Origin: Acidobacteriota bacterium
GTDB taxonomy: Bacteria; Acidobacteriota; UBA6911; RPQK01; JADFOI01
Length of the DNA stretch: 64,000 nt
NCBI GenBank assembly: GCA_963663035.1
Contig: OY760074.1
Location: 1,536,001 to 1,600,000, forward strand
Direction: 5' to 3'
Numbering within the stretch: the stretch's first letter is position 1; the number at the start of each line of letters is the position of its first letter. Below are positions 3,207 to 47,668 of the stretch, piece after piece. Under the pieces are notes generated by a model. It was not told the DNA's origin, did not search any database, and saw only the letters and a program-made list of their open reading frames with translations. The translations under genes were made by a program, and so were the position numbers.

Positions 3207-3282
3207 TGGTAGCCCCAACGGGATTTGAACCCGTGTTACCGCCTTGAGAGGGCGGCGTCCTAGGCCACTAGACGATGGGGCC
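3207..3282 (-). tRNA. tRNA-Glu (CTC)
   Basis: Reverse complement GGCCCCATCGTCTAGTGGCCTAGGACGCCGCCCTCTCAAGGCGGTAACACGGGTTCAAATCCCGTTGGGGCTACCA folds as a cloverleaf with CTC anticodon and encoded CCA. Confidence 0.97.
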
Positions 3283-6868: not shown

Positions 6869-7591
6869 ATGTCAAGACAACGCAAGTCCCGAGGCCGGAA
6901 GAAAGAAAGACAGCAGGAGGAGCACCAGGGGGGCACCTTGCGAGAGTACTTCCTCACGATCGTAGTCTGCACCGTCATTGCCCTCTTTGTGACCACCTAC
7001 GTTGTGCACCCGATGAGCGTGCCAACTCCCTCGATGGAACCGACCATCCTGGTGGGCGACCGTCTCCTGATTGACAAATTCACCATACGCAACGGATATG
7101 AATCAGGACTGCCAGCGATACCCAGCTACACGGTGCAACGACAGGACATCGTCGTTTGCAAGGCTCTCCTTGAGCCGGAAATTTTTCTGGTGAAACGAGT
7201 CATCGGCATTCCGGGTGACAGACTGGAGATTCGCGACAAAGCCGTTTACATCAACGGCGAAGCGCTGGATGAGCCCTATAAACAGCATTTGGACCCAAAT
7301 GTCATTACAGAGAACGGACAGCGGGACAACTTCAGCACGATCATCATTCCAGAGGACAGCTACTTCGTCATGGGTGATAATCGCGATGACAGCTACGACA
7401 GTCGTGCCTGGGGGGTTCTTCCCAAACGCTACATCGTGGGTCGGCCCCTGTTTATTTTCTGGTCCTACGAAGACCCACCCGACGCCCATCTGAGAACCTC
7501 TCTCACCGAGATCCTTGAGCTCTATGGTGAACGACTCCTTTTCTTTGTGACTCGCACTCGCTGGAGCCGCACGGGAAGACGTTTGCGTTAG
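6869..7591 (+). CDS. lepB: Signal peptidase I (copy 1)
   Basis: PSMEPT (catalytic Ser), VKRVIG (catalytic Lys), YFVMGDNRDDSYDSR. Confidence 0.93.
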   Translation: MSRQRKSRGRKKERQQEEHQGGTLREYFLTIVVCTVIALFVTTYVVHPMSVPTPSMEPTILVGDRLLIDKFTIRNGYESGLPAIPSYTVQRQDIVVCKALLEPEIFLVKRVIGIPGDRLEIRDKAVYINGEALDEPYKQHLDPNVITENGQRDNFSTIIIPEDSYFVMGDNRDDSYDSRAWGVLPKRYIVGRPLFIFWSYEDPPDAHLRTSLTEILELYGERLLFFVTRTRWSRTGRRLR

Positions 7592-7625
7592 TGTCTACAC
7601 TATAAATGGTAAGATCTATTGAACC

Positions 7626-8363
7626 ATGGAGACACCAGAGACACCAGAGCAAGCGGAACTGCAGCCTGAGGAAGAGAGCACTCTGCGTGAGTATTTTATA
7701 ACCATAGTGGTTTGTACAATCTTCGCTCTCTTCGTCACCACATACCTGGTGCATCCCATGACCGTGCCCACCCCCTCGATGGAACCCACTATTCTGGTCG
7801 GAGATCGTCTACTCATCGATAAATTCACCATCCGCAACGGTTTCAGGCTCGGACTCCCCTTCACCCCCCAACACACCGTTGAGCGAGGAGATGTGATCGT
7901 CTTCAAATTCCCAAGGGAACCCAGGGTCCTATACGTGAAACGGGCCATTGGTCTGCCAGGAGAGACCTTAGAGATTCGCGACAAGAATGTCTACATCGAC
8001 GGGAATCTTCTGCATGAGCCTTATAAAGTGCACACTGATCCCTACATCTATCCTGAAAGAGATCCCTACCACCAAGACTCTGGGGACTCTCAGCGCGATC
8101 ACTACGGTCCCAAGACGATTCCCGACGATCTGTACTTCGTCATGGGTGACAATCGAGACGACAGTGCCGACAGTCGCTATTTTGGGTTTCTTCCGCGCAC
8201 TCATATCCTGGGCACTCCCCTCCTTGTTTTCTGGTCCTACGAGGACGACGCGGATGCCTACTTGAGAACCTCCCTTCCCGAGATACTTCAGCTCTATGCT
8301 GAACGCATCCTCTTCTTTTTTAATCGCACCCGCTGGACCCGAATGGGTCATCTGGTCAGATAG
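7626..8363 (+). CDS. lepB: Signal peptidase I (copy 2)
   Basis: PSMEPT, YVKRAIG, YFVMGDNRDDSADSR. Confidence 0.93.
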   Translation: METPETPEQAELQPEEESTLREYFITIVVCTIFALFVTTYLVHPMTVPTPSMEPTILVGDRLLIDKFTIRNGFRLGLPFTPQHTVERGDVIVFKFPREPRVLYVKRAIGLPGETLEIRDKNVYIDGNLLHEPYKVHTDPYIYPERDPYHQDSGDSQRDHYGPKTIPDDLYFVMGDNRDDSADSRYFGFLPRTHILGTPLLVFWSYEDDADAYLRTSLPEILQLYAERILFFFNRTRWTRMGHLVR

Positions 8364-8540
8364 CCCGCATTATGCATAAATTTTCTGCTACAGTGTCGCA
8401 ATCATCCGCGCTGACGGCGTTGTGCTTCCTTACGCCCCTCGGCGTACTGCACGAATACGCCTGCGGGGCGCTTCGTCACACGCCTTGTCATCGCGGCGCT
8501 TGCGCCACCTCGCTACGAAAACCTAGGCATAATGCGGGCT
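8362..8540. mobile_element. MITE-like element, family A copy 1
   Basis: Terminal inverted repeats AGCCCGCATTATGC (8362-8375) and GCATAATGCGGGCT (8527-8540); non-coding; homologous to 12672-12884 in inverted orientation. Confidence 0.75.
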
Positions 8541-8544
8541 CTAG

Positions 8545-10365
8545 GTGACAGGAGTCTCCCCGGTGGATCAAGCGAACATCCGCAACTTCTGCATCATCGC
8601 CCACATTGATCACGGGAAGTCCACACTCGCGGACCGCCTCCTGGAAGCCACCGGCACAGTGGAAGCTCGTCAAATGCGTGCCCAAATCCTGGATCGCATG
8701 GATCTGGAGCGGGAGCGCGGCATTACCATCAAGATGTCTGCCGTTCGCATCTACCACCGCGCCAGTGACGGTGAAGTGTATGAACTCAACTTGATCGACA
8801 CACCTGGTCATGTCGATTTCACTTATGAAGTTTCCCGTAGTTTGACCGCTTGTGAAGGAGCTCTTTTAGTTGTAGATGCTGTCCAGGGTGTGGAGGCACA
8901 AACACTGGCCAATGTCGATTTAGCCCTCACCCACAAACTCACCATCATTCCAGTCATCAACAAGATTGATCTTCCCGCCGCCGATCCCGAGCGGGTAAAG
9001 GAGGAGATCGAAGAGGCGCTGTTGATCGAGGGTTCCGAGAGTCTGCTCGCCAGCGCCAAGGAGGGACTGGGTATCGAGGAGATCCTTCAGACCATTGTGA
9101 CGCGCATTCCTCCTCCCAGTGGAAGTCCGGAAGCGCCCCTGCGAGCACTGATCTTTGACAGCCACTTTGACCCTTATGTCGGCATCATCGCTCACGTGAG
9201 AGTTATGGATGGTGTCCTGAAGCCGGGAATGCAGATTCGAATGATGGCATCGGAGCACGAGGCAGAGGTCAGTGAGGTGGGGGTTTTTGCACCCGATATG
9301 TTCTCGACCAGTGCTCTCCACGCCGGGCAGGTGGGATTCGTGCACGCCGGAATCAAGGAGATCGGGGCCTGCCGGGTGGGCGATACCCTGACCGATGCCA
9401 ACCAGCCGGCCGATCAGGCTCTGCCCGGATACAAAAAGGTCAAACCCATGGTCTTCTACAGTCTCTATCCGGCCGACAGCGAACAGTTCCCGGATCTGAG
9501 AGAAGCCCTGCTGCGGCTGCAGCTCAACGACGGAGCCCTTTCCTTCGAGCCCGAAACTTCGGCCGCTCTGGGTTTTGGCTTTCGATGCGGTTTTCTGGGC
9601 TTGCTGCACAGTGAGATCGTTCACGAACGGTTGGAGCGGGAATTCGATCTGGCACTCATTGCCACTTCTCCTTCGGTGGTCTACCGCATCACCCTCACAG
9701 ATGGATCCACCCTCTCGGTTGACAATCCCGCCAAGTGGCCTCCCCGAGGACAAATCTCGACAATCAGGGAACCTTTCGTTGAGGCCACTATTGTGACACC
9801 CACCGAATACGTGGGTGCTTGTATGGAGCTGTGCACCGAAAGGCGCAGCGTCTTTCGCAGCATGGATCACAGCACAACCAAGCGCATGGTGCTCAAATAC
9901 GAGCTGCCACTGAGCGAAATCCTCTTTGACTTCTTCGATGCTCTGAAAAGTCGTAGTCGAGGCTACGCTTCTTTTGACTATGACTTCCTGGGTTATCGGG
10001 AGGGAAAGCTCGTCAAACTGGACATCGCCGTCAATGGGGACCCAGTGGACGCGCTGAGTTTCATCACCCATCGGGACAAGGCCTTTACGCGAGGCAAGGC
10101 TTTGGTGAAGCGGTTAAAGGAAGTTCTGCCCAGACACCTGTTCGAGATTCGACTTCAAGCCTGTCTCGGCTCCAAGGTCATTGCGGCAGAAAGGATTCCG
10201 CCTCTGCGGAAGAACGTGCTGGCCAAGTGCTACGGAGGCGACATCACTCGTAAACGCAAACTCCTGGAGAAACAGAAAAAAGGTAAGCACCGCATGAAAT
10301 CAGTGGGCCAGGTGGAAATCCCACAGGAAGCTTTTCTGAGCGTCCTGAGAGTGGGAGGAGATTAG
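8545..10365 (+). CDS. lepA: Elongation factor 4 (LepA)
   Basis: [61 protein letters not shown]. Confidence 0.98.
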
Positions 10366-10366
10366 A

Positions 10367-10567
10367 AGCCCGCACTTCTCACACCCGCTCTACTGCATCG
10401 GCGCAATGATCCGACCTGACCGTGTTGCGCGACCCGCAAGCGGGTACCCCTCGCGCGCCAGTCGGAGCCGCAGGCTTTAGCCTGCGGGCCCGTGGGCTAA
10501 AGCCCACGGCTCTGTTTTCCGGCCCTTCCGCCGCTTCGCTACGATCTGGTGTGAGAAATGCGGGCTA
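10367..10567. mobile_element. MITE-like element, family B copy 1
   Basis: 19-bp TIRs AGCCCGCACTTCTCACACC / GGTGTGAGAAATGCGGGCT (1 mismatch); closely similar to 19949-20188; internal REP-like hairpins. Confidence 0.78.
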
Positions 10568-10582
10568 GTGGCGGGCTAGTGG

Positions 10583-11355
10583 CTAGTCGACACGTTTTAG
10601 CCGGACGGGAAAGTCCACTTGATGTTTGACCCAGTCGAAAAAGCGATCCTGTTCCTCCAGGCTCTTTCCGGGAAGCAGAATGCTGGGATCCCGCCATTCC
10701 TTCATCACGGGCGCATCTTGTGTCAGTATTTTGACACGCTTCCTGGGCACCAGACTCGTCCATTGGTCGCCGGTCTCAGCATCGGTGTACAACAGCCGAA
10801 TCACAATATTTCTGGATTAGTTCTCCAGTGGCTTGATAACGATAGACCTGTAGGCTTCGCTGCGCTCCGCCTCAGGCACATCTGGTATCCCGTCGCTTAT
10901 CAGGACAATAGCCAGAGGTCTCAAGATCAGTTTTCGATTGCTCACTGTTTCACTGACATGGTGGAAAAAGGCATTGAAATCCGTAAACGGATTCTCTTGG
11001 GAAAGATCTTCAGCTTTTGATGGATCCCTGGCAGCGTTTCGTATTCAAAGGTCTGAATGGGATAGAGGGTCTTGGCCTCTCCCACAGTGGAACCTCCAAT
11101 GGAGCCAACAAAGACTTCATCGGGCTGCTCCAGACCACCCAACCCCTGGAGGTGGGCGTAAAGGTAATGAGCCAGAAAGTTCAGAGAATCATCAAAGTAC
11201 TTACCCTTGAGAAAGGAACCACTGATATCCACACCCACAAACATAACCAGTCTGGGCACTGGTTCGGAGAGAAAAGCGTCAGGAAGGCAGCTCGTCAATC
11301 CAAAAAACACCACCAAAAGAACAGAACAGGTCAATATTTTTGATCTGGACTTCAC
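10583..11355 (-). pseudogene. VWA-like (MIDAS DxSxS) lipoprotein gene, disrupted
   Basis: Lipobox LTSC and VGVDISGSF. Frameshift near 10995-11000, after which the other frame reads ENPFTDFNAFF...IVLISDGIPD; in-frame TAA at 10817-10819; frame then continues SRNIVIRLLYTD to TAG at 10583. Confidence 0.7.
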
Positions 11356-11357
11356 GA

Positions 11358-12572
11358 TTAGGCCTGTTTCTTTCTTTTACTAGATGGGAATGCGTCTTCA
11401 AGCAAGCCCTTCGAATCCATGATCTGTTCCAACTTCGTCAATGGAATTTGAAATAGTGGGACCGCGGTCAGAAGAAAAGTACAGAAATTCACTGAAGCAG
11501 CCAGGATCTGCAATGGCGGGATTAGAAAGGCATTAAAAACCTCATTCCCCTTTTCCAGAGCCCATTCGAATTCTCCTCTCACCTGTCCGATCAGCTCAAT
11601 CTTCAGTGCGCTCTTCTCCTCACCCGAGGAAGGAGCCTCTAAGTTTCCCGTCACACCCATCCCCTGGATGATCGCCAGAAGCAGGGGGGTCCCATGACTG
11701 GCAAAGAGAACCCAGGACATTCCTCGAATTCCGAACCATGCAAGCCCGGCAATCACTAAAGTTCCAATAATCCCGAGTTCGAATTCACCCGAGGTGTGCT
11801 GATCAAACCAGGGAACCAGTGAATCTACAAATTCTCTATAGAGAAAGACCACCTCAACAAAGAGAGCCACCAACTCGATGATGCCAATTTGAATGATTGT
11901 GCCAATCTTTTTTGTGCTGAGCGCTTCGGCCCAGGTAGAGAGAACAGCGTAACTCCCAAGGACCAGGAACAACAGAAAAAGAAACAAGGGAATCCTGAGG
12001 AGATTCTCCGAGAGAGCTTGACCCGTTAAATTGGATAAAGTGTCCATCACCAGAGGGGTCATCACATAGGTGAACACAACGGCTTCAATCAGGCACCAGG
12101 TGAGGGTCAACAAGAGTGCAATCCATGGGACACGCGTATCGAAAATTCCCGTACCCAGATTTTTGAAGACCCGAAACGGAATAAAGAGTAGATCCTGAAT
12201 TAAAATCCAGATTCCCACAATGAACAATTTCAACAAACCAAAGACCGCAGTAATAAAGACAAAGACAAACTTAAACATTCCAGCCCAAAAGGACAGGATG
12301 GCCTTGCCAAGGTCCCACCAGACCAAAAAGAACTTGATCAGAAACTGGCTGCGATCTACGCGGAAGACGACAGAGACCAGGCAGGGAACGGTCACCCAAC
12401 ATCCCACAATAACGGACAGAACCGGCAACAGAATAAACAACCTCTTGAAGAGAGCCAGCCAGAAAGCGTCCTCTACTCCCAAGGCAAAAAACAAAAAGTC
12501 ATTCTGGAAAAAGAGAGGGAAAAAGAGAAAGCTCAAGATGACTTTCCAGGCACCGGATACTTCACTAAACAT
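11358..12572 (-). CDS. Multi-pass membrane protein of unknown function
   Basis: 404 aa with many hydrophobic helices, GGAGA RBS, ends 2 bp before the VWA-like gene start. Confidence 0.75.
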   Translation of the reverse strand: MFSEVSGAWKVILSFLFFPLFFQNDFLFFALGVEDAFWLALFKRLFILLPVLSVIVGCWVTVPCLVSVVFRVDRSQFLIKFFLVWWDLGKAILSFWAGMFKFVFVFITAVFGLLKLFIVGIWILIQDLLFIPFRVFKNLGTGIFDTRVPWIALLLTLTWCLIEAVVFTYVMTPLVMDTLSNLTGQALSENLLRIPLFLFLLFLVLGSYAVLSTWAEALSTKKIGTIIQIGIIELVALFVEVVFLYREFVDSLVPWFDQHTSGEFELGIIGTLVIAGLAWFGIRGMSWVLFASHGTPLLLAIIQGMGVTGNLEAPSSGEEKSALKIELIGQVRGEFEWALEKGNEVFNAFLIPPLQILAASVNFCTFLLTAVPLFQIPLTKLEQIMDSKGLLEDAFPSSKRKKQA

Positions 12573-33303: not shown

Positions 33304-33391
33304 TGGTGCCGGAGGCGGGATTCGAACCCGCACACCCTTTCGAGCGCCACCCCCTCAAGATGGTGTGTCTGCCAAGTTCCACCACTCCGGC
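33304..33391 (-). tRNA. tRNA-Leu (GAG)
   Basis: Reverse complement GCCGGAGTGGTGGAACTTGGCAGACACACCATCTTGAGGGGGTGG...GGTTCGAATCCCGCCTCCGGCACCA; long variable arm; conserved position after secG. Confidence 0.97.
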
Positions 33392-35905: not shown

Positions 35906-36913
35906 TTAAAGCTTTTTCCCGATGAATTCGGCTAACTCCACGACACGACTCGAATATCCCCACTCGTTATCGTACCAGGCCAGGACCTTGACCATGTTGT
36001 CGCCCAAGGTTTTGATGAAGGGACCATCCACAATGGCCGAATGGGGATCTTTGGTGAAATCGGAAGAAACGAGGGGTTCATCGCTGTATGCCAATATCCC
36101 CTTCAATTGAGCTTGGGCAGCTTCGCGAAAGGCATCTTTGACTTCATCGTCCGAGACATCCTTTTCCAGGGTAGCCGTCAAGTCGACCAGGGATACCTTC
36201 GGTGTGGGGACCCGAATGGAAATTCCATCCAGCTTTCCTTCTAATTCAGGAAGCACCTGGGTCACGGCCAGTGCGGCTCCTGTAGTGGTGGGAATCATGG
36301 AGAGAGCGGCTGCGCGAGCTCTCCTCAGATCTTTGTGGGGGAGATCCAGAATACGCTGATCAGTGGTGTAGCTGTGAATGGTCGTCATGAGACCCTTGCG
36401 GATTCCGAAGTGCTCATGCAAGACCTTTGCAACAGGTGCCAGGCAGTTGGTGGTACAGCTGGCATTGGAAACAATAGAGTGCTGGCCTGGATCGTACTTC
36501 TCCTCATTGACCCCCAGGCAGACCATCAGGTCCTGGTCCTTGCCAGGCGCACTCACAATGACCTTTTTTACCGAATCGCGCAGGTGCTTGGCGGCATCCT
36601 GGCGCTTTCGAAACAGCCCGGTGGACTCTATGACGATCTCCGCTCCGGCTTCACCCCAGGGGATCTGCCCGGGATCCCTTTGGGCAGAGACTTGGATCTT
36701 TCTTCCCTCTACGGAGAGAGAGTTTTCATCGTAAGTTACCTCAGCTGGCAATCGCCCATAGATGGAATCATATTTCAGCAAGTGGGCCAGGGTCTTTGGA
36801 TCCGTGATGTCATTAATAGCCACAATCTCCACTTGAGAATCGGACTCCATTGCAGCCCGAAAGACATTGCGCCCGATCCGTCCAAAACCGTTGATTGCTA
36901 CCTTTGTGGCCAT
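35906..36913 (-). CDS. gap: Type I glyceraldehyde-3-phosphate dehydrogenase
   Basis: VAINGFGRIGR, SNASCTTNCLAP, WYDNEWGYS. Confidence 0.98.
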   Translation of the reverse strand: MATKVAINGFGRIGRNVFRAAMESDSQVEIVAINDITDPKTLAHLLKYDSIYGRLPAEVTYDENSLSVEGRKIQVSAQRDPGQIPWGEAGAEIVIESTGLFRKRQDAAKHLRDSVKKVIVSAPGKDQDLMVCLGVNEEKYDPGQHSIVSNASCTTNCLAPVAKVLHEHFGIRKGLMTTIHSYTTDQRILDLPHKDLRRARAAALSMIPTTTGAALAVTQVLPELEGKLDGISIRVPTPKVSLVDLTATLEKDVSDDEVKDAFREAAQAQLKGILAYSDEPLVSSDFTKDPHSAIVDGPFIKTLGDNMVKVLAWYDNEWGYSSRVVELAEFIGKKL

Positions 36914-36999
36914 TTCTTCTCCATTTTCTCGGCGCCGTTCTCTCCCTGAACTTGGAGAGACCTTTATATCAGCAGGATCAGACTGAAACAAGACATGAG

Positions 37000-37932
37000 T
37001 TAACCGTCCTGCCGGTAGGGATCACTGCCGTCCGGCTGGGTCTGAAAGCGCCGGTGTCCCCACAACCAGCAGTGGGGGTACTCACGGATGACCTCTTCGA
37101 TTTTTCCATTCACCAGGGTCATGGTCTCCCTGATATCCTTCTGGGAATCACCGCTGCTCACCACCTCTATGGGGGGATAAAAACGAATGATGTAGTGGCC
37201 ACGGCGGTGGCCTGGGAAGATAAAACCCACCACAATCGGCATCGAGGTCTTCAGGGACAGAGCGGCCACGCTGGAATTGGTCGAGGCTGGGTGACCGAAG
37301 AGGGGAACGTAAACACCTTCCTTCTCCTGGCTGTTCTGATCCAGAAGAAACCCCACATCGCCACCCTCCCTGAGAAGCTTGAGGATTTGTCGCACAGATC
37401 CCTGTTTGGCGATGACCTGATTGCCGGACTGCGTGCGCAAACGCGTGACCCAGCGCTCCAGAAAAGGATTATCCAGGGGGCGCACCACAAAACTGAGAGG
37501 ATGCCCGTAAAGCGCATGAGCGACAGGTAAAAGCTCCCATGCGCTGATATGAGCAGTGAAAAAAAGCATGGCCGGATGGCGCTGTCGGGCATCGAGATAA
37601 TTTTCCAGTCCACGGTCTGCCTCATAGCGAACCCGCCTCTTGACTTTCTCTGGGGTTAGACGATGCAGGCGGCTCAGCTCGACCACATGGTCTCCCAACT
37701 GTTGAAAGCTTTGCCGAAGAATCCGCTTCTTCCAGTGCTCATCTCTCTCAGGAAAAGCGATGCTCAAATTGATCATCCCAATGCGGCGATGTTTCTTATC
37801 CAGGAGGAACACCAAAGCCGCCAGCCCTTCGCAAACAGGATAGGCCAGAAAGCGCGGCAGCACTCCAATGAGCGCGAAAAACACCCGAACCAGAGCATAG
37901 ATCAAACTGTCGAGTGTTCTGGTCAGGGGCAT
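37000..37932 (-). CDS. lpxL: Lipid A biosynthesis acyltransferase (LpxL/HtrB family)
   Basis: NLSIAFPE, TAHISAWE, RPLDNP, FLLDQN, VPLFG, YP..WLWGHRRF. Confidence 0.88.
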   Translation of the reverse strand: MPLTRTLDSLIYALVRVFFALIGVLPRFLAYPVCEGLAALVFLLDKKHRRIGMINLSIAFPERDEHWKKRILRQSFQQLGDHVVELSRLHRLTPEKVKRRVRYEADRGLENYLDARQRHPAMLFFTAHISAWELLPVAHALYGHPLSFVVRPLDNPFLERWVTRLRTQSGNQVIAKQGSVRQILKLLREGGDVGFLLDQNSQEKEGVYVPLFGHPASTNSSVAALSLKTSMPIVVGFIFPGHRRGHYIIRFYPPIEVVSSGDSQKDIRETMTLVNGKIEEVIREYPHCWLWGHRRFQTQPDGSDPYRQDG

Positions 37933-37940
37933 TTTGACCC

Positions 37941-38906
37941 TTAAGGCGAGTTCTCCGAAGAAATCTTCTCCAGCAGCTTTCCCCACGATTCCTGCTCTCG
38001 CTGGGGATCGACCAACGAGGAAAGTCGAGCACAATGCGATTGAAGGTCCTGGTAGAAGCTTTCGTCCACCTCAGCCTTTCGGAGCTGCCGTGCCAGAGCA
38101 CGGGTGTCTCCCAGGGGAAAATAGCCTGGGTACTTCTCACCCAGCGTGCCCATGAGGCCGGGAATCTGCGAAGCCACTACCGGCACCGAAGAAATCAAGG
38201 CTTCCGAGAGAACATTTGAACTCCCTTCCATTCGGGAGGTCAGAGCCACCAGGTGGCTGCCAGCCACCAGGCGGCGGGTCTTTCCATAGGGAAGAGCCCC
38301 CATCCAACGATAACGTGGGTTGCTCTGAGTTTCTTCGAGTGCTTTGTTCTCCATCCCAGGACTGAGCGCCTCTCCCACCTGCAAAATCTTGATCCGCGAA
38401 GAGGCGGGGAGGCGTCGACTGGCCAGAGCAGCACGAAACGGATCCTTTTCAGGCCTCAGATTTCCCACCACACAGACTCGAAAAGAGCCCTTGGGAGGGG
38501 AGGGTTTGCCCGGAACCGGTTCAGCAGATTGGTAGATGACGAAAGTTTTCTTTCGGACAGCGGCGGAGAGCTCCCTCAGCGCCTGCTCCTGCAACGCGAC
38601 CACATGGGTCGCCAGCTGGAACGACTCTCGGACCTCAGGTCTGTGGTGAAGATCACGATAAAGATCCGTCCCCGTGAGCACCACCACCAGAGGCTTGGTG
38701 GGATGCTCTTCGCGAAATCGGCGAATCGAGTCAAAGCTCTTGACAGCGTGCAGCGCAATCAGGAGATCACAGAAGTCCCCATCAAAGTGGCGTCCGACGG
38801 TGGCCCGATGTCCGAGTCGCCTGAGCATTCGCGCCCATCGGCGAGCCGTCACCCGGTTTCCGTCCAATAAGGCTTTCGGTGTCGGTGTGACCAGTCTGAT
38901 TTTCAT
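37941..38906 (-). CDS. senB: Selenosugar synthase SenB (TIGR04348-type glycosyltransferase)
   Basis: VTP.......GNRVTARRWA, IALHA.KS, VVLTGTDLYRD, R.EKDPF, SRMEG.SNVLSEA; directly downstream of senA. Confidence 0.88.
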   Translation of the reverse strand: MKIRLVTPTPKALLDGNRVTARRWARMLRRLGHRATVGRHFDGDFCDLLIALHAVKSFDSIRRFREEHPTKPLVVVLTGTDLYRDLHHRPEVRESFQLATHVVALQEQALRELSAAVRKKTFVIYQSAEPVPGKPSPPKGSFRVCVVGNLRPEKDPFRAALASRRLPASSRIKILQVGEALSPGMENKALEETQSNPRYRWMGALPYGKTRRLVAGSHLVALTSRMEGSSNVLSEALISSVPVVASQIPGLMGTLGEKYPGYFPLGDTRALARQLRKAEVDESFYQDLQSHCARLSSLVDPQREQESWGKLLEKISSENSP

Positions 38907-40219
38907 TTTATAGTGTCTCGAGCAGCGGTGCGAAATCCAGCCAATATATCGCGCCGGTCAGGAGTCTGGTAATTGCGCCATGTGTTGTGGACAAGCCGCG
39001 ATCGAGTCGTCCAGCAGCCACCACGCATCACCTTGCGTGTGCCAAACCAGGGCTCAGAGTAATCCTTATAGGGATCCACCACGAAACCGGGGTAGGGCAA
39101 AAAGTCGTTGGCGATCCATTCCCACACGTTTCCGATCATCTGGCGGCAGCCCGAGGGGCTGTCACCCTCCTTCAGCGCTCCTACCTCCACACATCCTCCG
39201 GCTTCCCAGTCCAGGTTGGCACGTCCACTGGTGGGCGGCTCATCACCCCAGGGAAAGCGCCTCTTAGCCTCACTGATTGTCCCGTCCGATTGAAAGCTTT
39301 GCGAAGCCGCCATCTCCCACTCGGGCTCACTCAAGAGACGCCGTCCGGACCAGTTGCAGTAGGCCTCCGTTTCATACCAGTTGACATGAATCACGGGAAG
39401 ATTTTCCTCCAGGCGGTGGAACTGGTTGAAGTGACGACGCATCCACTGGTTTGCGGATTCACGCTTCCAGTAGACAGGGTGCTGGGCATCGGCCTGCTCA
39501 CGCCAGCTCCATCCAGGCTCACTCCACCATTCCCGGCGCTGATATCCCCCCTCCTCCACAAAGACTGCAAACTCAGCATTGCTCGTGGCCGCCCGTGCCA
39601 CTCGAAAGGGCTTGACCTGGACAGGATGGCTCCACTTCTCATTGTCGAAAACGAAAGGCATCTCGGGCGTTGACCCTAAGGGAAATGTCCCCCCCGGGAC
39701 TTCCACATCACCGGAGAGAGGTCCCCTCTCCTCTTGAGAGGCGGCTTTCTCCTCCCTATCCTGAGCCCACAGAGGAGGTGGGAAATAGTTGAGGGTCTGT
39801 CTTGTGTGGGTGAACGCCTCATCGTGCATATCTTCGTGAAAGAGTGCCAACCGATAAAAATAGGCCTCCTCTTCCGTCTTGGGTGATTGCAGGGCCTCGA
39901 TGATGCCAGAGAGCACCTGCTCCATGTAGCGAAGGGTCTTCTTCCGTGAGGGAAGAGGCAGGTCCCAGCGCGTATCGTGAGCCACGGCCATGGAATCGTA
40001 GAGCCGATCCCCATCCTCTCGAATCGGTTCCTTTTTTAACAAATGACGGAGTGTCCATTTTTCCTGAAACCAGGCCACATGTCCGATCTCCCAGAGAAGC
40101 GGATTGACAATATCAAGACGGGGTCCCATCAGCTGCTCATCCGACAGATCCTCCACCAGTGCCAGGGTTCGAGAACGAGCTTCCTTCAACTGATCAATCA
40201 AATTCGCTGAAATACTCAT
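38903..40219 (-). CDS. senA: Selenoneine synthase SenA (EgtB homologue, DinB + FGE-sulfatase)
   Basis: VNPLLWEIGHVAWFQEKW (HxxWFQE rather than EgtB HxxHxxWF), LYDSMAVAHDTRWDLPLP, FHEDMHDEAF, FDNEKW, GNVWEW, RGG. Confidence 0.85.
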   Translation of the reverse strand: MSISANLIDQLKEARSRTLALVEDLSDEQLMGPRLDIVNPLLWEIGHVAWFQEKWTLRHLLKKEPIREDGDRLYDSMAVAHDTRWDLPLPSRKKTLRYMEQVLSGIIEALQSPKTEEEAYFYRLALFHEDMHDEAFTHTRQTLNYFPPPLWAQDREEKAASQEERGPLSGDVEVPGGTFPLGSTPEMPFVFDNEKWSHPVQVKPFRVARAATSNAEFAVFVEEGGYQRREWWSEPGWSWREQADAQHPVYWKRESANQWMRRHFNQFHRLEENLPVIHVNWYETEAYCNWSGRRLLSEPEWEMAASQSFQSDGTISEAKRRFPWGDEPPTSGRANLDWEAGGCVEVGALKEGDSPSGCRQMIGNVWEWIANDFLPYPGFVVDPYKDYSEPWFGTRKVMRGGCWTTRSRLVHNTWRNYQTPDRRDILAGFRTAARDTIK

Positions 40220-41265
40220 TGCGATCTCTCCACCTGACGTTTCAACAACAGCAATGAAAACCACTCCTGGGGATCGGTAAAATGTGCGATCGATTCCAGA
40301 CCGATGAGTTGAAAGTGCTGCTGAAGTTCAAGGGGCTCAAACTTACGACTGATTTCGACGAGAATCTCCTCCCCTTCCTTCCACAAGAACTCCGATTTCA
40401 CAGGAGGGAGATCTATCTTCTGATCTGAGGTGGAGACAGCGTACATTTCCATCTGCTGCAACTGGAGATTATAGAAAGAGTGGTAGCGCATTTTCGCCAG
40501 GTCGAAATTGCTACCCATCACCCGATTGATGTTCTCAAAGGCGTTTAAAATGAAATCGGATGTCGTTCCTTCAGAATCGTTGTAGGCCTTTTCCAGAGTC
40601 TCCACTCTTTTGTCACGATCTACACCGAGAAGCAAGAGATCATTCGAGCCCATGCATTCCCTGAGCAGCCGAAAGAAACGCATGAAATCGGACCGATCAA
40701 AGTTGCCCACACTGCTTCCCAGAAAGACGAAAAGTGTGGGAAGGCTTTTCTCGATACTGGAGATCCCCTTCTCGTAACGAGCACACAATCCATGAAAGCC
40801 CAGTTGGGGAAACTGCTCATTGACCGAGTCCCTCGATTCAATCAGAGCCGTCAGACTCACGTCAATGGGAACAAATGTCCCTCCGCCCAGTTGTCTGACT
40901 TGTTCGCTCAGAAGATGGACCGTTTTTTTGGAAAAACCTGCGCCCAACTCCACCAGACATTCCGCTTCAGTCAGGGCAATGATCTGTTTCGCCTCCTTTT
41001 CAAGGATGGCATCCTCCGTACGGGTCAGGTAATACTCGGGAAGAGCGGAGATCTTCTCGAACAAGTGGGAGCCTCGCTCATCGTACAAAAACTGAGGCTC
41101 TATGTGGCGGGGCTGGTCGAGAAGTGCCCTGGCGATGGATCGCGCCACATCTTCCTCAGGGGTCTCGGAAGTCAGTGCCCAGATTGAAGGATCGACAGGA
41201 TACCAACGCTCCAGCTGGGCAGATGAGAAAATCTCAGGTGGACTTTCTATCTTTTGATCTCTCAT
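40216..41265 (-). CDS. egtD: L-histidine N(alpha)-methyltransferase EgtD
   Basis: FLYDERGSHLFEKI..LPEYYLTRTE, ELGAG..KKT, FLGSSVGN, GVD, AYNDSEG, EISRKF; ATG overlaps the symporter stop. Confidence 0.9.
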   Translation of the reverse strand: MRDQKIESPPEIFSSAQLERWYPVDPSIWALTSETPEEDVARSIARALLDQPRHIEPQFLYDERGSHLFEKISALPEYYLTRTEDAILEKEAKQIIALTEAECLVELGAGFSKKTVHLLSEQVRQLGGGTFVPIDVSLTALIESRDSVNEQFPQLGFHGLCARYEKGISSIEKSLPTLFVFLGSSVGNFDRSDFMRFFRLLRECMGSNDLLLLGVDRDKRVETLEKAYNDSEGTTSDFILNAFENINRVMGSNFDLAKMRYHSFYNLQLQQMEMYAVSTSDQKIDLPPVKSEFLWKEGEEILVEISRKFEPLELQQHFQLIGLESIAHFTDPQEWFSLLLLKRQVERSQ

Positions 41266-43025
41266 GTCTTCATGACTTCCTGCCAATCGCGCCTGGAAAG
41301 ATCCCAGTAGATAATGCCACCCGCAAGAAGAGCCAACACAAGAAGCGAGAACCCCAGAAGCAGTTCTCCAAAAATCACTTTCCCGATGCCAAACAAAACC
41401 CCGTAAACCAGAAGCACTCCGCACACCCAGTCGAGGAACAACCATGCAAAAGCCGAATCTCCCGGTACATCCGGAACCAACCTTTCAATCTTCCGCCAAC
41501 CAATTCCGCCGGGATGAACGCGTCGATAGAATTCAATCAAGCGCTCTTCCGCCACAGGTTTGGTGAGAAAGGTCACAAGAATCCAGACTGCCGTTGTGAC
41601 TCCTACGATATAGAAAAGGGTTTCAGGAAAGACGACCGTGGTCTTCAACTTGATGTAAGCGTAGACAAGAAAAGGAGTCACCGTTGCACTGATCTCACTC
41701 CAAGCGTTGATCCGCCACCAGTAAAAGCGGAGCATCAAGACAAGTCCCAATCCGGCACCGGACTCGATGAGGAACTGCCACGCTCCCGAGATCGTCTGGA
41801 TGACCAGTGTGACCAGAATCGAAGCGACCATGACAATAAAAGTGACGACCCTTGCCACCAATACGTAGTGGCTCTCCGAAGCCTCCTTCTCGATGAATCT
41901 TCGATAGAAATCATGGACGACATAGGAAGTGCCCCAATTGAGTTGGGTGGAGATGGTGGACATATAGGCTGCAAAAAATGAGGCCACCAACAGGCCTTTC
42001 AAACCCACCGGAAGAAAGTCCCGCATCGCATAAACGTAGCCAAGCTTTTTATCGGCAGCATCCAGCTCCGGATACAAGACAAGGCTGGCCAATCCCACCA
42101 GAATCCAGGGCCACGGTCGCAAGCAGTAATGGGCAATGGTAAACCACAGCGTCGCCATTAAAGAGTGCTTTTCATCTTTGGCAGACATCATCCTTTGGGC
42201 AACATAGCCACCGCCTCCCGGCTCCGCCCCGGGATACCAGGCGGCCCACCATTGAACAAAAATGTAGGCCACAAAGGCACTGACACTCAGAGCCAGAATC
42301 CCTCCATAGGCAATGCTTTCGACTCCAGAATCGATCACAGGAGTAAATTGAAAGACCCAGGCAGGCAGCTGATTTTTCAGTCCGGTGATTCCGCCTATTT
42401 CAGGCAGATTGATGACCACAATGGCAAGAGTGAGAGTCCCTGCCATGGCGATGGAAAACTGCATGACATCCGTCACCGCAATTCCCCGCAGACCGGAAAG
42501 AGCAGAGTAAATGGCCGCGAATACCATGGCCGCAAAGACATAGTATCGAACCTGTCCTTGAGAGATATCGAACATCCCGATCAAAACGGTAGCCATGGCC
42601 ACGTTCACCCACCCCATGATGACCGTGTTGATGAAAAGTCCGAGATAAAGGGCTCTGAACCCCCGTAAAACGGAGGCCGGCCTGCCCGAATATCGAAGTT
42701 CAATAAAGGCCACGTCGGTCAGGACTCCTGCCCTTCTCCACAATCTGGCGAAGAAGAAACAGGTAAACATGGAACCAAAGAGAAAGTTCCACCACAGCCA
42801 GTTTCCCGCAATGCCTCCAGTGGCCACTAGCTCGGTCACTGCAAGAGGAGTATCCGCCGCGAAAGTGGTGGCAACCATTGAAGTCCCGGCCAACCACCAG
42901 GGAAGGCTCCGACCGGAAAGGAAAAATTCCTGAGTATCTCTTCCCGCTCGCTTAGAATAATAGGCAGCGATAGCGAAGCTCAACAGGAGATACAAGATCA
43001 CGATGACCCAATCGATTACCGACAT
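41262..43025 (-). CDS. Sodium:solute symporter (SSS/SLC5 family)
   Basis: EFFLSGRSLPWWLAGTSMVATTFAADTP, AQRMMSAKDE, AAYMSTISTQLNWG; many TM helices. Confidence 0.92.
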   Translation of the reverse strand: MSVIDWVIVILYLLLSFAIAAYYSKRAGRDTQEFFLSGRSLPWWLAGTSMVATTFAADTPLAVTELVATGGIAGNWLWWNFLFGSMFTCFFFARLWRRAGVLTDVAFIELRYSGRPASVLRGFRALYLGLFINTVIMGWVNVAMATVLIGMFDISQGQVRYYVFAAMVFAAIYSALSGLRGIAVTDVMQFSIAMAGTLTLAIVVINLPEIGGITGLKNQLPAWVFQFTPVIDSGVESIAYGGILALSVSAFVAYIFVQWWAAWYPGAEPGGGGYVAQRMMSAKDEKHSLMATLWFTIAHYCLRPWPWILVGLASLVLYPELDAADKKLGYVYAMRDFLPVGLKGLLVASFFAAYMSTISTQLNWGTSYVVHDFYRRFIEKEASESHYVLVARVVTFIVMVASILVTLVIQTISGAWQFLIESGAGLGLVLMLRFYWWRINAWSEISATVTPFLVYAYIKLKTTVVFPETLFYIVGVTTAVWILVTFLTKPVAEERLIEFYRRVHPGGIGWRKIERLVPDVPGDSAFAWLFLDWVCGVLLVYGVLFGIGKVIFGELLLGFSLLVLALLAGGIIYWDLSRRDWQEVMKT

Positions 43026-43100
43026 TGCTCAATCACTTCGACTTGCTGCGTTCGTTTAAGGAGGCTAACAGGCAAGACCCGACAGCACAAGAGAGGGGAA

Positions 43101-43228
43101 TTGGTTCCCGAGTGGCATTCGCTATCGGTGGCAAGAGAGTGTGGAAATCTCGGCGGACTCCAAACTTCTTAGGGCACCGCTCTCACAGCGGGCACCGTTT
43201 TTACGGCGTCTGTCTCTCGGGAACCAGT
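43101..43228 (-). ncRNA. Putative structured ncRNA or 5' leader of unknown class
   Basis: Perfect 11-bp closing stem (43102-43112 with 43216-43226) and internal hairpins; begins at the predicted TSS of a sigma70 promoter. Confidence 0.6.
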
Positions 43229-43233
43229 TAGTT

Positions 43234-43261
43234 ATTGTACTGAAAGAAAAGCCCAAGTCAA
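43234..43261 (-). promoter_or_regulatory. Sigma70-type promoter
   Basis: TTGACT-N16-TACAAT on the minus strand. Confidence 0.7.
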
Positions 43262-43278
43262 GGGTAAAAAGCATTTAT

Positions 43279-43344
43279 TTTCAATAAGTTACAAAAAACA
43301 TTCATGCACACTATTTTCACACTTTTCTCACAGCTTTTTCCAAA
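43279..43344. promoter_or_regulatory. IHF-like site plus four phased DnaA-box-like 9-mers
   Basis: TTTCAATAAGTTA (WATCAANNNNTTR, 1 mismatch); TCATGCACA, ATTTTCACA, TTTCTCACA, TTTTCCAAA at 43302/43313/43324/43336, each 1 mismatch from TTWTNCACA. Confidence 0.45.
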
Positions 43345-43346
43345 AC

Positions 43347-43613
43347 TCACTTGTCGGCCCCGTACCACTTATAATTGATGTCCACATATTTCACCCACTG
43401 TTCCGGAACTTCATCTTCTGGGAAGATAGCTTCCACGGGACATTCAGGAACACAGGCTCCGCAATCGATACACTCCTCCGGATCAATAAACAACATCTCT
43501 TCGGTTTCGAATTTCGTCTCATCACTGCGGGGATGAATACAATCGACGGGACAGGCATCCACACAAGCTGTGTCTTTGACTCCGATACAGGGTTCGCAAA
43601 TAATAAATGTCAT
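43347..43613 (-). CDS. fdxA: Ferredoxin (7Fe, FdxA-type)
   Basis: CEPC..VKDTACVDACPVDCI and IDPEECIDCGACVPECPVEAI. Confidence 0.92.
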   Translation of the reverse strand: MTFIICEPCIGVKDTACVDACPVDCIHPRSDETKFETEEMLFIDPEECIDCGACVPECPVEAIFPEDEVPEQWVKYVDINYKWYGADK

Positions 43614-43809
43614 CGGTTGTGACCTTTGCCTTTTCGCTCTTTACTCAATTTAACTAAGTCTTTTCGAGGTCAAGAGAGATTGTCATATTGTCGCTTTTTA
43701 TATTTTAAAGTATTAAAGCCCTGTCATCAAAACACAGTCATCGCCTCTTTGACAAGCCGGAAGTTCCTGCAGTTGACCCTTTCAGGTTGGTTCTCCTACA
43801 CTACACTCA

Positions 43810-44784
43810 GTGAACCGGACAGAGCGTCTACTCGACTTGATTACCTACTTGCTGAACGCGCGAGAACCCGTGTCTTGGCAGGAAATCAAAAATCACTTCC
43901 CGGATGACTACTCTCGAGGTGTTGAGGAATCCAATCAGAGAAAGTTTGAACGCGACAAAGCGGAACTCATTTCGTTAGGAATTCCAATCGATTATCACAG
44001 TGGAGCAGGTGTGAAAAAAGAGGGCTATCTCATTGAGAAAGAGAAGCTCTTCCTTCACGAGGTTCAGTTCACTCCACAGGAGTCCTCTCTCTTGATGCTC
44101 TCAGCGGGCGCCGTTTTGAACGACGAAGGTTTCCCCTATCGGGACCAACTGGAATCTGCACTTCACAAGATCACCAGTGTCAATGATCACCTGAGTCCTC
44201 CTCCTCCTGGAATTACCATCACCTACGCTGGCGATAAGGGAACCGTAAACCGCGCAAAGTGGGTGAATGAAATCCAGGATGCTCTGGATCGGCGTAAGAC
44301 GCTCAAGTTTACCTACCACGCTTTTTCCACCCGCGAAACCACGAAACGCACGTTGGATCCCTATGGATTGATTTTCCGCAGGGGGTTTTGGACGCTCATC
44401 GGGTGGGACCACATCCGCCAGGATCTGCGCTCCTTTGTGGTGAGCCGGATCCGGAACTTGAAACCAAACACTCGACGTCCAGGAACTCCGGACTTTGAAG
44501 TTCTCGATGGATTTTCCGTGAAAAACTATCAGAATCAACAGCAGTGGGAACTGGACTTACACGATCCCATCCAAGTGACAATCCAAGTCTCGCAGCACCG
44601 GCTGCTTGAACTCCTGGCCCAATTAAGGAGCGCCAAGAGAACGAGCAAGAATACTTTCGAATTAAGTGTGAAGAACCGCTTCGGTCTGATATCCTGGATT
44701 CTCTCTCAAAAAACTGATGTCCGGGTTTTAGACCCGCCAGAAATACAAAGCGAGCTTTGTGAAGTTCTTCGAAAACTGCAATGA
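43810..44784 (+). CDS. WYL-domain transcriptional regulator, PafB-like
   Basis: RTERLLDL, RKFERDK HTH motif, R.LDPYGL....GFW.LIGWD..R.DLRSF...RI, C-terminal WCX-like region. Confidence 0.87.
   Translation: MNRTERLLDLITYLLNAREPVSWQEIKNHFPDDYSRGVEESNQRKFERDKAELISLGIPIDYHSGAGVKKEGYLIEKEKLFLHEVQFTPQESSLLMLSAGAVLNDEGFPYRDQLESALHKITSVNDHLSPPPPGITITYAGDKGTVNRAKWVNEIQDALDRRKTLKFTYHAFSTRETTKRTLDPYGLIFRRGFWTLIGWDHIRQDLRSFVVSRIRNLKPNTRRPGTPDFEVLDGFSVKNYQNQQQWELDLHDPIQVTIQVSQHRLLELLAQLRSAKRTSKNTFELSVKNRFGLISWILSQKTDVRVLDPPEIQSELCEVLRKLQ

Positions 44785-47594: not shown

Positions 47595-47668
<74 letters not shown>

Follow-up and report, generated by a model that had tools for sequence, protein, structure and literature searches.

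Between a promoter-like sequence and a symporter-selenoneine operon, in a 64,000-nucleotide stretch of Acidobacteriota DNA (the window: contig OY760074.1, positions 1,536,001 to 1,600,000), lies an RNA of 125 nucleotides (nt) with a very stable predicted fold. The locus raises a simple question: is this RNA a regulatory leader of the operon that follows it, which encodes a sodium:solute symporter, an EgtD-type histidine methyltransferase, SenA and SenB, or is it a gene of its own? A sequence-only reading, made without database searches, had left both answers standing: a riboswitch-like leader, with hercynine, ergothioneine/selenoneine, S-adenosylmethionine (SAM) or Na+ as candidate ligands, or a free-standing, lineage-specific small RNA (sRNA), possibly a divergent 6S-like one, with read-through. 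Comparison with related genomes shows a conserved, strand-specific, co-varying rod, which has its own promoter, is single-copy and is portable relative to its neighbours. We regard it as probable, with moderate confidence, that the RNA is a free-standing, lineage-specific, rod-shaped sRNA of an undescribed family, acting in trans, and that its promoter is here also a probable read-through promoter; very probably, it does not serve as a riboswitch for selenoneine or the symporter. Transcription, action in trans, a protein partner and read-through are what we infer from the sequences.

The features of the locus are the following, in the direction of transcription.

43299-43334, minus strand: three phased TGTGnAAAT-type repeats, with a period of about 11 nt, 5' of the promoter, read from the sequence.
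43272-43290, minus strand: A/T-rich element AACTTATTGAAAATAAATG, just 5' of the -35 hexamer.
43261-43256 and 43239-43234, minus strand: sigma-70-type promoter, TTGACT, 16-nt spacer, TACAAT, with 10 of 12 positions matching the consensus.
43226-43102, minus strand: the RNA, 125 nt, a very stable predicted hairpin.
43226-43216, minus strand: 5' strand of helix P1, UGGUUCCCGAG, in the minimum free energy (MFE) fold.
43209-43215, minus strand: purine-rich strand AGACAGA of the basal internal loops, opposite AAUGCCA.
43191-43208, minus strand: 18-nt tandem duplication, making the extra hairpin CGCCGU-AAAA-ACGGUG.
43120-43190, minus strand: variable middle of the rod, with P2 (CGCUGU/AUAGCG and CGGUG/CACCG), then P3; it includes the conserved apical hairpin.
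43162-43152, minus strand: apical hairpin with UGGAGUCCGCC.
43113-43119, minus strand: conserved AAUGCCA, 3' strand of the basal internal loops.
43112-43102, minus strand: 3' strand of P1, CUCGGGAACCA, in the MFE fold.
43026-43101, minus strand: pyrimidine-rich tail, AUUCCCCUCUCUUGUG..., and 76-nt spacer to the symporter start.

The MFE of the RNA is -51.4 kcal/mol, against -34.9 +/- 3.6 for 200 dinucleotide shuffles, none of which is as stable (z -4.55). The 11-bp helix UGGUUCCCGAG/CUCGGGAACCA closes the molecule: the sequence-only reading had noticed it as a perfect stem, and it is found both in the MFE fold and by an inverted-repeat scan. Above it, AGACAGA and AAUGCCA form G-C, C-G and A-U pairs, broken by A.A, A.C and tandem GA/AA. 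Two inner hairpins had also been proposed: GCCGU-AAAA-ACGGU is part of the MFE fold, while CCGCU-GUGAG-AGCGG is an alternative to the long-range pairing of CGCUGU/AUAGCG and CGGUG/CACCG, which the MFE fold prefers. The suspicion that alternative folds are possible was justified, and the competing hairpins are due to the 18-nt tandem duplication. This is limited to G000 (the genome that holds the window, 96.6% complete), G002 and the metagenome locus L039; the alignment of homologues described below (A4) has a gap there in its other 24 rows.

The promoter had been placed correctly by the sequence-only reading. It is the only promoter-like site on the minus strand between 42800 and 43700; on both strands, the same interval holds 2 such sites, against 1.0 +/- 1.0 in shuffled sequences. 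Transcription would start near 43229-43227. The A/T-rich element may be either UP-like or an operator, and the TGTGnAAAT repeats could be curved DNA or binding sites for a regulator; TGTG(C)AAA(T)-like elements are also found 5' of the RNA promoter in relatives. Similar repeats, TGTGCAAAA, were seen at the syntenic spot in genomes of family f7, which do not carry the RNA (L090, L099), where they adjoin an NtrC-like activator gene. On the other side, the last base of the RNA, 43102, is separated from the symporter start codon at 43025 by 76 nt, the distance already given by the earlier reading. The sole terminator-like hairpin, GGGAACCAAUUCCC (43109-43096), is weak: its 5-bp stem, GGGAA/UUCCC, overlaps the 3' strand of P1, within a rod of about -50 kcal/mol. 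Extending the fold by 85 downstream nt adds no stability signal (z -1.41).

A DNA search detected the element in 12 of 61 related genomes, and in a single copy in G000. A covariance model, built from 14 sequences, was then run on 76 genomes of the order: 25 of them, belonging to 7 families, contain exactly one match each. Leaving G000 out, carriers are 9 of 14 genomes in f1, 8 of 10 in f14, 3 of 3 in f6, and the one genome available in each of f5, f8, f11 and f16; the model had no match in f3 (0/15), f7 (0/16), f9 (0/5) and f12 (0/3). These tallies, like the count of WYL orthologues given below, take in G017, a genome flagged as unpublished; the genomes include incomplete metagenome-assembled ones, and absence means absence from the genomes searched. 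A second model had no match in 150 other genomes sampled across the phylum, under strict filters that left few candidates to be scored per genome. Exact-pattern scans of public collections gave 10 genome and 3 metagenome stretches, all from the same lineage. Among the genomes searched, the RNA family is confined to part of one Acidobacteriota order, made up here of uncultured marine and sediment lineages.

Homologues range from 84 to 125 nt. For 21 of 26, a single unbranched hairpin is predicted; the median z is -4.6, and z falls below -3 in 21 of 26. The collection of homologues and the covariation check, which the sequence-only reading had suggested, thus comprise 26 sequences (A4), in which 23 pairs were tested, and compensatory changes appear in both P1 and P2. 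Paired cells make up 90.5% of A4, against 79.8% in shuffles, none of 500 reaching the observed value, and 30-47% when partners are slid; because kinship inflates the shuffle figures, the argument from covariation rests on the slid controls and on the diversity of pair types. Both sides change in 12 of the 23 tested pairs. The 14-pair basal helix (columns 2-17 with 115-130) is paired in 97% of cells, with compensatory changes in 7 of its 14 pairs; in P2 they occur in all 4 tested pairs, one position featuring C-G, G-C, A-U and G-U. P1 is nearly invariant in f1, as GUUCCCGAG/CUCGGGAAC, and co-varies outside it, for example as GGCCCCCGAG/CUUGGGGGCU or GGCUUCCGAG/CUUGGAAGCC.

An almost invariant stretch, 5' AGAGACAGA opposite 3' (G/A)AUGCCAC, consists of G-C, C-G and A-U pairs broken by A.A, A.C and tandem G.A/A.A or G.A/A.G. 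All 26 sequences agree in columns 14-17, and pairs 14-118 and 16-116 are likewise invariant, while 17-115 is A-U in 24 of 26; UGCC, in the 3' strand, is invariant or nearly so over the 26 sequences. At the other end, the apical hairpin GG-AGUCCG-CC is conserved (GAGCCCG in f14): its G-C pairs 71-80 and 72-79 are kept in 25/26 and 23/26 sequences, and the apical stem of G009 shows compensatory changes. A leader peptide was considered for the conserved AUG of AAUGCC and rejected: G003 and G006 have ACG in place of this triplet, and the frame that follows is not conserved.

Such a palindromic locus might contain no functional RNA at all, being instead a DNA palindrome, used for recombination or protein binding, or a bidirectional terminator between convergent genes. 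The element does lie between convergent genes in at least 4 loci, its reverse strand also folds and scores 21-38 bits, and flanking inverted repeats, together with inversion, reveal DNA rearrangement at the spot. Conservation is, however, strand-asymmetric: sense scores far exceed antisense ones (120.4 against 34.5 bits in L037, 98.2 against 28.2 in G000), and G.U pairs are present in P1. Compensatory changes preserve pairing rather than sequence, all 26 homologues have a promoter at a fixed distance, and a U-rich tail is present in only 12 of 26. We consider a DNA-level explanation most improbable.

The promoter itself behaves as part of the element. Upstream of all 26 homologues, a TTGA(C/T)(A/T) hexamer is placed 31-38 nt before the RNA and is accompanied by a plausible -10 hexamer; an A/T-rich ATAA(C/G)TT(A/G)TTGAAA element is also conserved further upstream, as judged by eye from the 26 upstream sequences. 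In G000, the combination of A/T-rich element, TTGAC(A/T) and -10 hexamer occurs at this locus only. Given the conserved promoter spacing, the predicted start of transcription is 1-10 nt ahead of the P1 base. The promoter accompanies the RNA also where the two are inverted relative to the flanking genes; possession of a promoter of its own, kept with the RNA independently of the neighbour genes, is one mark of a free-standing sRNA gene. The 3' end is less uniform: at least 5 U in an 8-nt window of the tail are found in 12 of 26 homologues, and the maximum in G000 is 3. An operator shared by the RNA promoter and the intergenic region between two nearby genes, coding for a ferredoxin and a WYL-domain regulator, was sought with four motifs, and was found in none of 9 regions.

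Gene context was tabulated for 28 loci. The symporter gene lies downstream, on the same strand, in 8 of them (G000, G002, L039, G005, G001, L038, G003, G006), an arrangement confined to the genus of the window. L037 and G009 carry the promoter-plus-RNA cassette the other way round: it is still located between ferredoxin and symporter genes, and is divergent from the latter and convergent with the former. In G011 and G021, a LysA-like decarboxylase gene precedes the RNA, which is directed at the 3' end of the ferredoxin gene; no symporter is present. A gene for a PQQ_2 (BamB-like) beta-propeller protein is found downstream in 7 loci by Pfam (f14, f16, f6), and 2 further cases are suggested by a shared N-terminal peptide. 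Other downstream genes are YicC-like (G018), a transposase (G062) and an unassigned open reading frame (ORF) followed by WYL (G024). Of the 4 other loci, three reach the contig end (G008, G010, G031), and the short G041 locus shows no identified downstream gene.

A metabolite- or ion-sensing riboswitch, acting as leader of symporter-egtD-senA-senB and responding to hercynine, selenoneine/ergothioneine, a selenosugar, SAM or Na+, would explain why the RNA is placed 35-130 nt 5' of the symporter gene, on the same strand, in the window and 7 related loci, directly behind the sole promoter-like site found, and why its structure is stable and conserved; the GGGAA/UUCCC hairpin over the 3' strand of P1 is a conceivable expression platform. 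Na+ (DUF1646 motif) and Li+ (nhaA-I) riboswitches lie upstream of cation/solute transporters, and here too a structured element separates a promoter from a sodium:solute symporter gene. The resemblance ends there: in this case the context is variable, close relatives have the element in reverse or lack it, and nothing found makes a convincing expression platform, a competing hairpin of 5 bp being set against a rod of about -50 kcal/mol. In L037 and G009 the cassette and the symporter gene point in opposite directions, and G012 and G014 have the symporter without the RNA. These two belong to the same family as G000; their symporter gene directly follows the ferredoxin gene, and no RNA was found there, with search filters off, or elsewhere in the genome. 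What follows the RNA in at least 17 of the 28 loci is a different gene or nothing at all. The sequence-only reading had proposed that variable downstream genes would support an RNA acting in trans, and variable they are; a riboswitch of the sen operon with a single ligand therefore does not fit. Neither does the shape: the RNA is a rod without branches, whose internal loops are symmetric and whose P1 sequence is invariant, and it forms no junction or pocket. In f14 the PQQ_2 start codon is about 170-175 nt past the RNA, behind a conserved TATTAA/TATAAG-like element, which is kept at the same place in genomes of f7 lacking the RNA. No Rfam 15 model, riboswitch classes included, matches, and the literature, as far as listings and abstract openings tell, contains no relevant link of selenoneine with a riboswitch. 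The riboswitch proposal is thus very improbable.

The loci with a symporter and no RNA (L108, from G012, at 7006-11829; L109, from G014, at 158-2219) show a further peculiarity: in G012 the symporter gene is followed by LpxL and GAPDH genes, and no egtD, senA or senB is there. The symporter is therefore not always tied to selenoneine genes.

A different role in cis would be that of a portable cassette, made of a promoter and a 5' leader, in which the rod is a stabilising hairpin, an RNase III site or a put/EAR-like polymerase-modifying element. The predicted start, 1-10 nt before a very stable helix, suits this role, as do the flanking inverted repeats and the two orientations observed; at least 18 of 28 loci have a gene in the same orientation behind the RNA (symporter 8, PQQ_2 7-9, YicC-like 1, transposase 1), and the tail would be a poor terminator in 14 of 26 homologues. 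In G011, G021, G009 and L037, however, what lies ahead of the cassette is the 3' end of a ferredoxin gene in convergent orientation, so that the cassette has nothing to express, and its sequence is still strongly conserved, at 68-120 bits. A plain stabiliser, moreover, needs no invariant internal and apical loops across 7 families, and PQQ_2 appears to retain a promoter-like element of its own. A role restricted to cis is judged unlikely.

Rfam 15 (4227 models) was searched. At gathering thresholds, the only matches in the window are three tRNAs elsewhere, with nothing on the RNA. At E<=10, positions 42950-43400 yield nothing beyond two rows at chance level, STnc300 (20.9 bits, where the gathering threshold is 80, E 2.2) and snoU2-30 (E 9.8), and at permissive thresholds 13 loci of relatives give no match on the RNA. 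That no known RNA class could be recognised from the letters thus agrees with the searches. Literature on Acidobacteria non-coding RNA motifs and covariation has nothing on this RNA, and the conserved 12-13-mers were not found in a bacterial context, both within listings and abstract openings. The RNA family is real, and no Rfam model, and no paper found, describes it.

Its rod shape, its own promoter and its single copy per genome could also suit a housekeeping RNA, namely a divergent 6S-like RNA, a signal recognition particle (SRP) RNA, a Y RNA or a CsrB-type RNA. With 6S RNA (RF00013) it shares a rod closed by the 5' and 3' ends, and no 6S was found in G000 either by RF00013 (E<=1) or by nhmmer with the 6S sequences of four relatives. 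However, 4 of the 5 carrier genomes tested have a true 6S RNA, above the RF00013 cut-off, at another locus, and for this reason the RNA is not 6S. 6S is about 180 nt long and has a central bubble; the present RNA, at 84-125 nt, is about half as long, lacks a large central bubble and has no RF00013 match, so that this part of the sequence-only reading was not borne out. Small bacterial SRP RNA (RF00169) is likewise a single hairpin of about 100 nt, with conserved internal and apical loops recognised by protein; here the conserved loops are different, the RNA is confined to part of one order, and a separate SRP RNA, at 68.4 bits, is found elsewhere in G000. A Y RNA/YrlA was rejected, the TROVE/Ro gene (PF05731) not being found in G000, and so was a CsrB/RsmZ-type sponge: CsrA (PF02599) was not found there, and the GGA motifs of the 5' arm are mostly paired. 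No Rfam model matches in support of any of them, and a housekeeping identity is hardly credible. Relatives in three other families do have 6S RNA, unlike the search result for G000.

The closest parallels are orphan structured motifs, reportedly including Acido-1, Acido-Lenti-1 (RF01687), Chlorobi-1 and Bacteroidales-1: like them, the RNA is small, structured and co-varying, is limited to one lineage and has no fixed downstream gene family; unlike them, it matches no Rfam 15 model in sequence or structure. Acido-Lenti-1 itself is found 260-450 nt upstream of the RNA, not on it, in G055 and G018 (L062, L053). The matches are pairs in opposite orientation (L062, 1851-1897 and 2005-2052; L053, 1926-1972 and 2001-2047), one of which is above the gathering threshold, at 37.5 bits.

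For the free-standing sRNA the following scheme may be proposed. The sigma-70-type promoter would start the transcript a few bases before the long closing helix; the transcript would fold into an unbranched rod of 84-125 nt, with a near-invariant base, a varying middle, a conserved apical loop and a pyrimidine-rich tail. It would act in trans, most likely as ligand or scaffold for a protein recognising the invariant basal helix and the apical loop. Conserved non-canonical pairs within a regular helix, combined with a conserved loop, are typical of RNAs recognised by proteins, such as SRP RNA, and on account of this resemblance a protein partner is preferred; alternatively, the RNA could act by base-pairing, through either its loop or its CU-rich tail. 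In G000 the RNA promoter would probably double as promoter of the operon, the RNA being the 5' end of a read-through mRNA: the weak tail, and the absence of another promoter-like site, make read-through into symporter-egtD-senA-senB likely. The RNA would sense no metabolite of the selenoneine pathway. A free-standing, lineage-specific sRNA with read-through, the second of the two possibilities left by the sequence-only reading, fits the conserved promoter and the variable context.

Several points weigh against this reading. The homologues are related, and the shuffle control overstates significance; the middle of the rod is aligned unreliably, so that covariation is claimed for P1 and the basal pairs, for the apical stem and, within P2, for the first four pairs. 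The U-rich tail, present in only 12 of 26 homologues, leaves the 3' end of a free RNA unfixed. Among possible protein partners, Hfq gives a weak match only (28.6 bits), and CsrA and Ro were not found. None of the listed sequencing runs that contain the locus is recorded as RNA, and two metatranscriptome runs gave no cover of it; both results are uninformative either way. Finally, the RNA precedes the symporter gene by 35-130 nt, on the same strand, in 8 loci, and is upstream of and co-oriented with PQQ_2 in 7-9 loci from three other families; in the symporter and PQQ_2 lineages it may have a leader role in cis.

The placement of the RNA beside the sen operon has a history of its own. Of the 76 genomes of the order, 73 have a WYL orthologue, at 51-94% identity; the ferredoxin gene is its divergent neighbour in 16 of the 18 RNA-negative loci looked at, as well as in RNA-positive ones, and the divergent pair is conserved order-wide (window 43347-44784; loci L083-L107). 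In carriers from six families, the RNA is about 0.6-4.5 kb from the WYL orthologue. The common block consists of a LysA-like or NtrC-like gene, the RNA, in some cases PQQ_2, and the ferredoxin gene on the opposite strand, beside WYL; families without the RNA keep the block NtrC-like, PQQ_2, ferredoxin/WYL, with no cassette. A diverged copy beside WYL-ferredoxin was looked for in RNA-negative genomes with model R2, filters off, and none was credible: the best scores were 14.4 bits (E 0.6) in 10 loci and 17.5 bits (E 0.1) in 8 loci, the latter match falling on both strands of L095, and G012 and G014 gave no rows.

The RNA is convergent with the ferredoxin gene in f8, f14, f16, f6 and parts of f1; in f11 it is upstream of WYL, on the same strand, and the ferredoxin gene is missing. 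Co-orientation with the ferredoxin gene is confined to genera g1 and g2 of f1, and for this reason a derived inversion is the simplest account of the orientation in the window. The adjacency of the RNA to the sen operon appears to result from a recent inversion of a small cassette: in the genus of the window, promoter and RNA would have been turned round and aimed at symporter-egtD-senA-senB. Flanking repeats are visible in two relatives. In G006 the cassette is enclosed by a 33-nt inverted repeat, 97% complementary, with 302 nt between its arms (L020, 5665-5697 and 6000-6032); in L037, where orientation is opposite, it is enclosed by a 24-nt inverted repeat, at 88% (4614-4637 and 4935-4958). 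Both repeats are built of CACGAA-type units. An inverted-repeat scan found no such flanking repeats around the cassette in G000, and in two other sequencing runs the DNA is arranged likewise, differing by a few substitutions and showing no joints.

The cassette of G006 and L037 looks like an inverton. Invertons are invertible promoter segments, the fim switch being an example, and the relatives share with them a promoter-bearing cassette between inverted repeats, found in both orientations between the same two genes; they differ in that G000 has no flanking repeats, and the two orientations are seen in different genomes, not in one population. A bolder proposal may be built on this: the locus would be a mobile, invertible switch of promoter and RNA, the rod would represent a new class of protein-binding regulator tied to the ferredoxin/WYL pair, possibly as a ligand of the WYL domain, and inversion at the flanking repeats would aim a strong promoter either at the operon for selenoneine uptake and synthesis or, antisense, into the ferredoxin gene. 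As a whole, this is improbable.

Returning to the free-standing sRNA, its description adds a well-supported structured RNA family without an Rfam model in a phylum whose RNA biology is almost unexplored. It also removes the attractive idea of a selenoneine or hercynine riboswitch, and shows that readings based on local context can mislead. What is most unusual about the locus is that close relatives have the cassette inverted, and the opposite orientations provide a testable case of promoter inversion on a secondary-metabolite operon.

The genes surrounding the RNA in the window are as follows (Pfam/NCBIfam searches).

43810-44784, plus strand: WYL/WCX-domain (HTH-WYL-WCX) regulator, divergent from the ferredoxin gene.
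43347-43613, minus strand: 4Fe-4S ferredoxin, 88 aa, upstream of the RNA.
41262-43025, minus strand: sodium:solute symporter family gene (SSF, 1.5e-29).
40216-41445, minus strand: EgtD-type histidine methyltransferase (egtD_ergothio, 291.8 bits against a cut-off of 290.9).
38903-40264, minus strand: SenA (487 bits against a cut-off of 420).
37941-38906, minus strand: SenB (371 bits against a cut-off of 300).

After SenB come genes for an acyltransferase of the LpxL type and for GAPDH. The last 184 nt of the symporter ORF are shared with the annotated EgtD ORF, and because of this overlap the true EgtD start is probably further downstream. Among the ORFs scanned, from 35906 to 44784, no selenophosphate-synthetase gene (SenC/SelD-type) was seen.

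CACGAA-type repeats are rare in G000: the genome contains 8 short arrays only, none of them at the RNA locus. One array of such 8-nt repeats (CACGAAAACACGAATGCACGAAAACACGA) is in the window, at about 17679 (genome position 1553679). The three tRNA genes, the sole Rfam matches of the window at gathering thresholds, are located at 3210-3282 and 33307-33391 on the minus strand, and at 47595-47665 on the plus strand.

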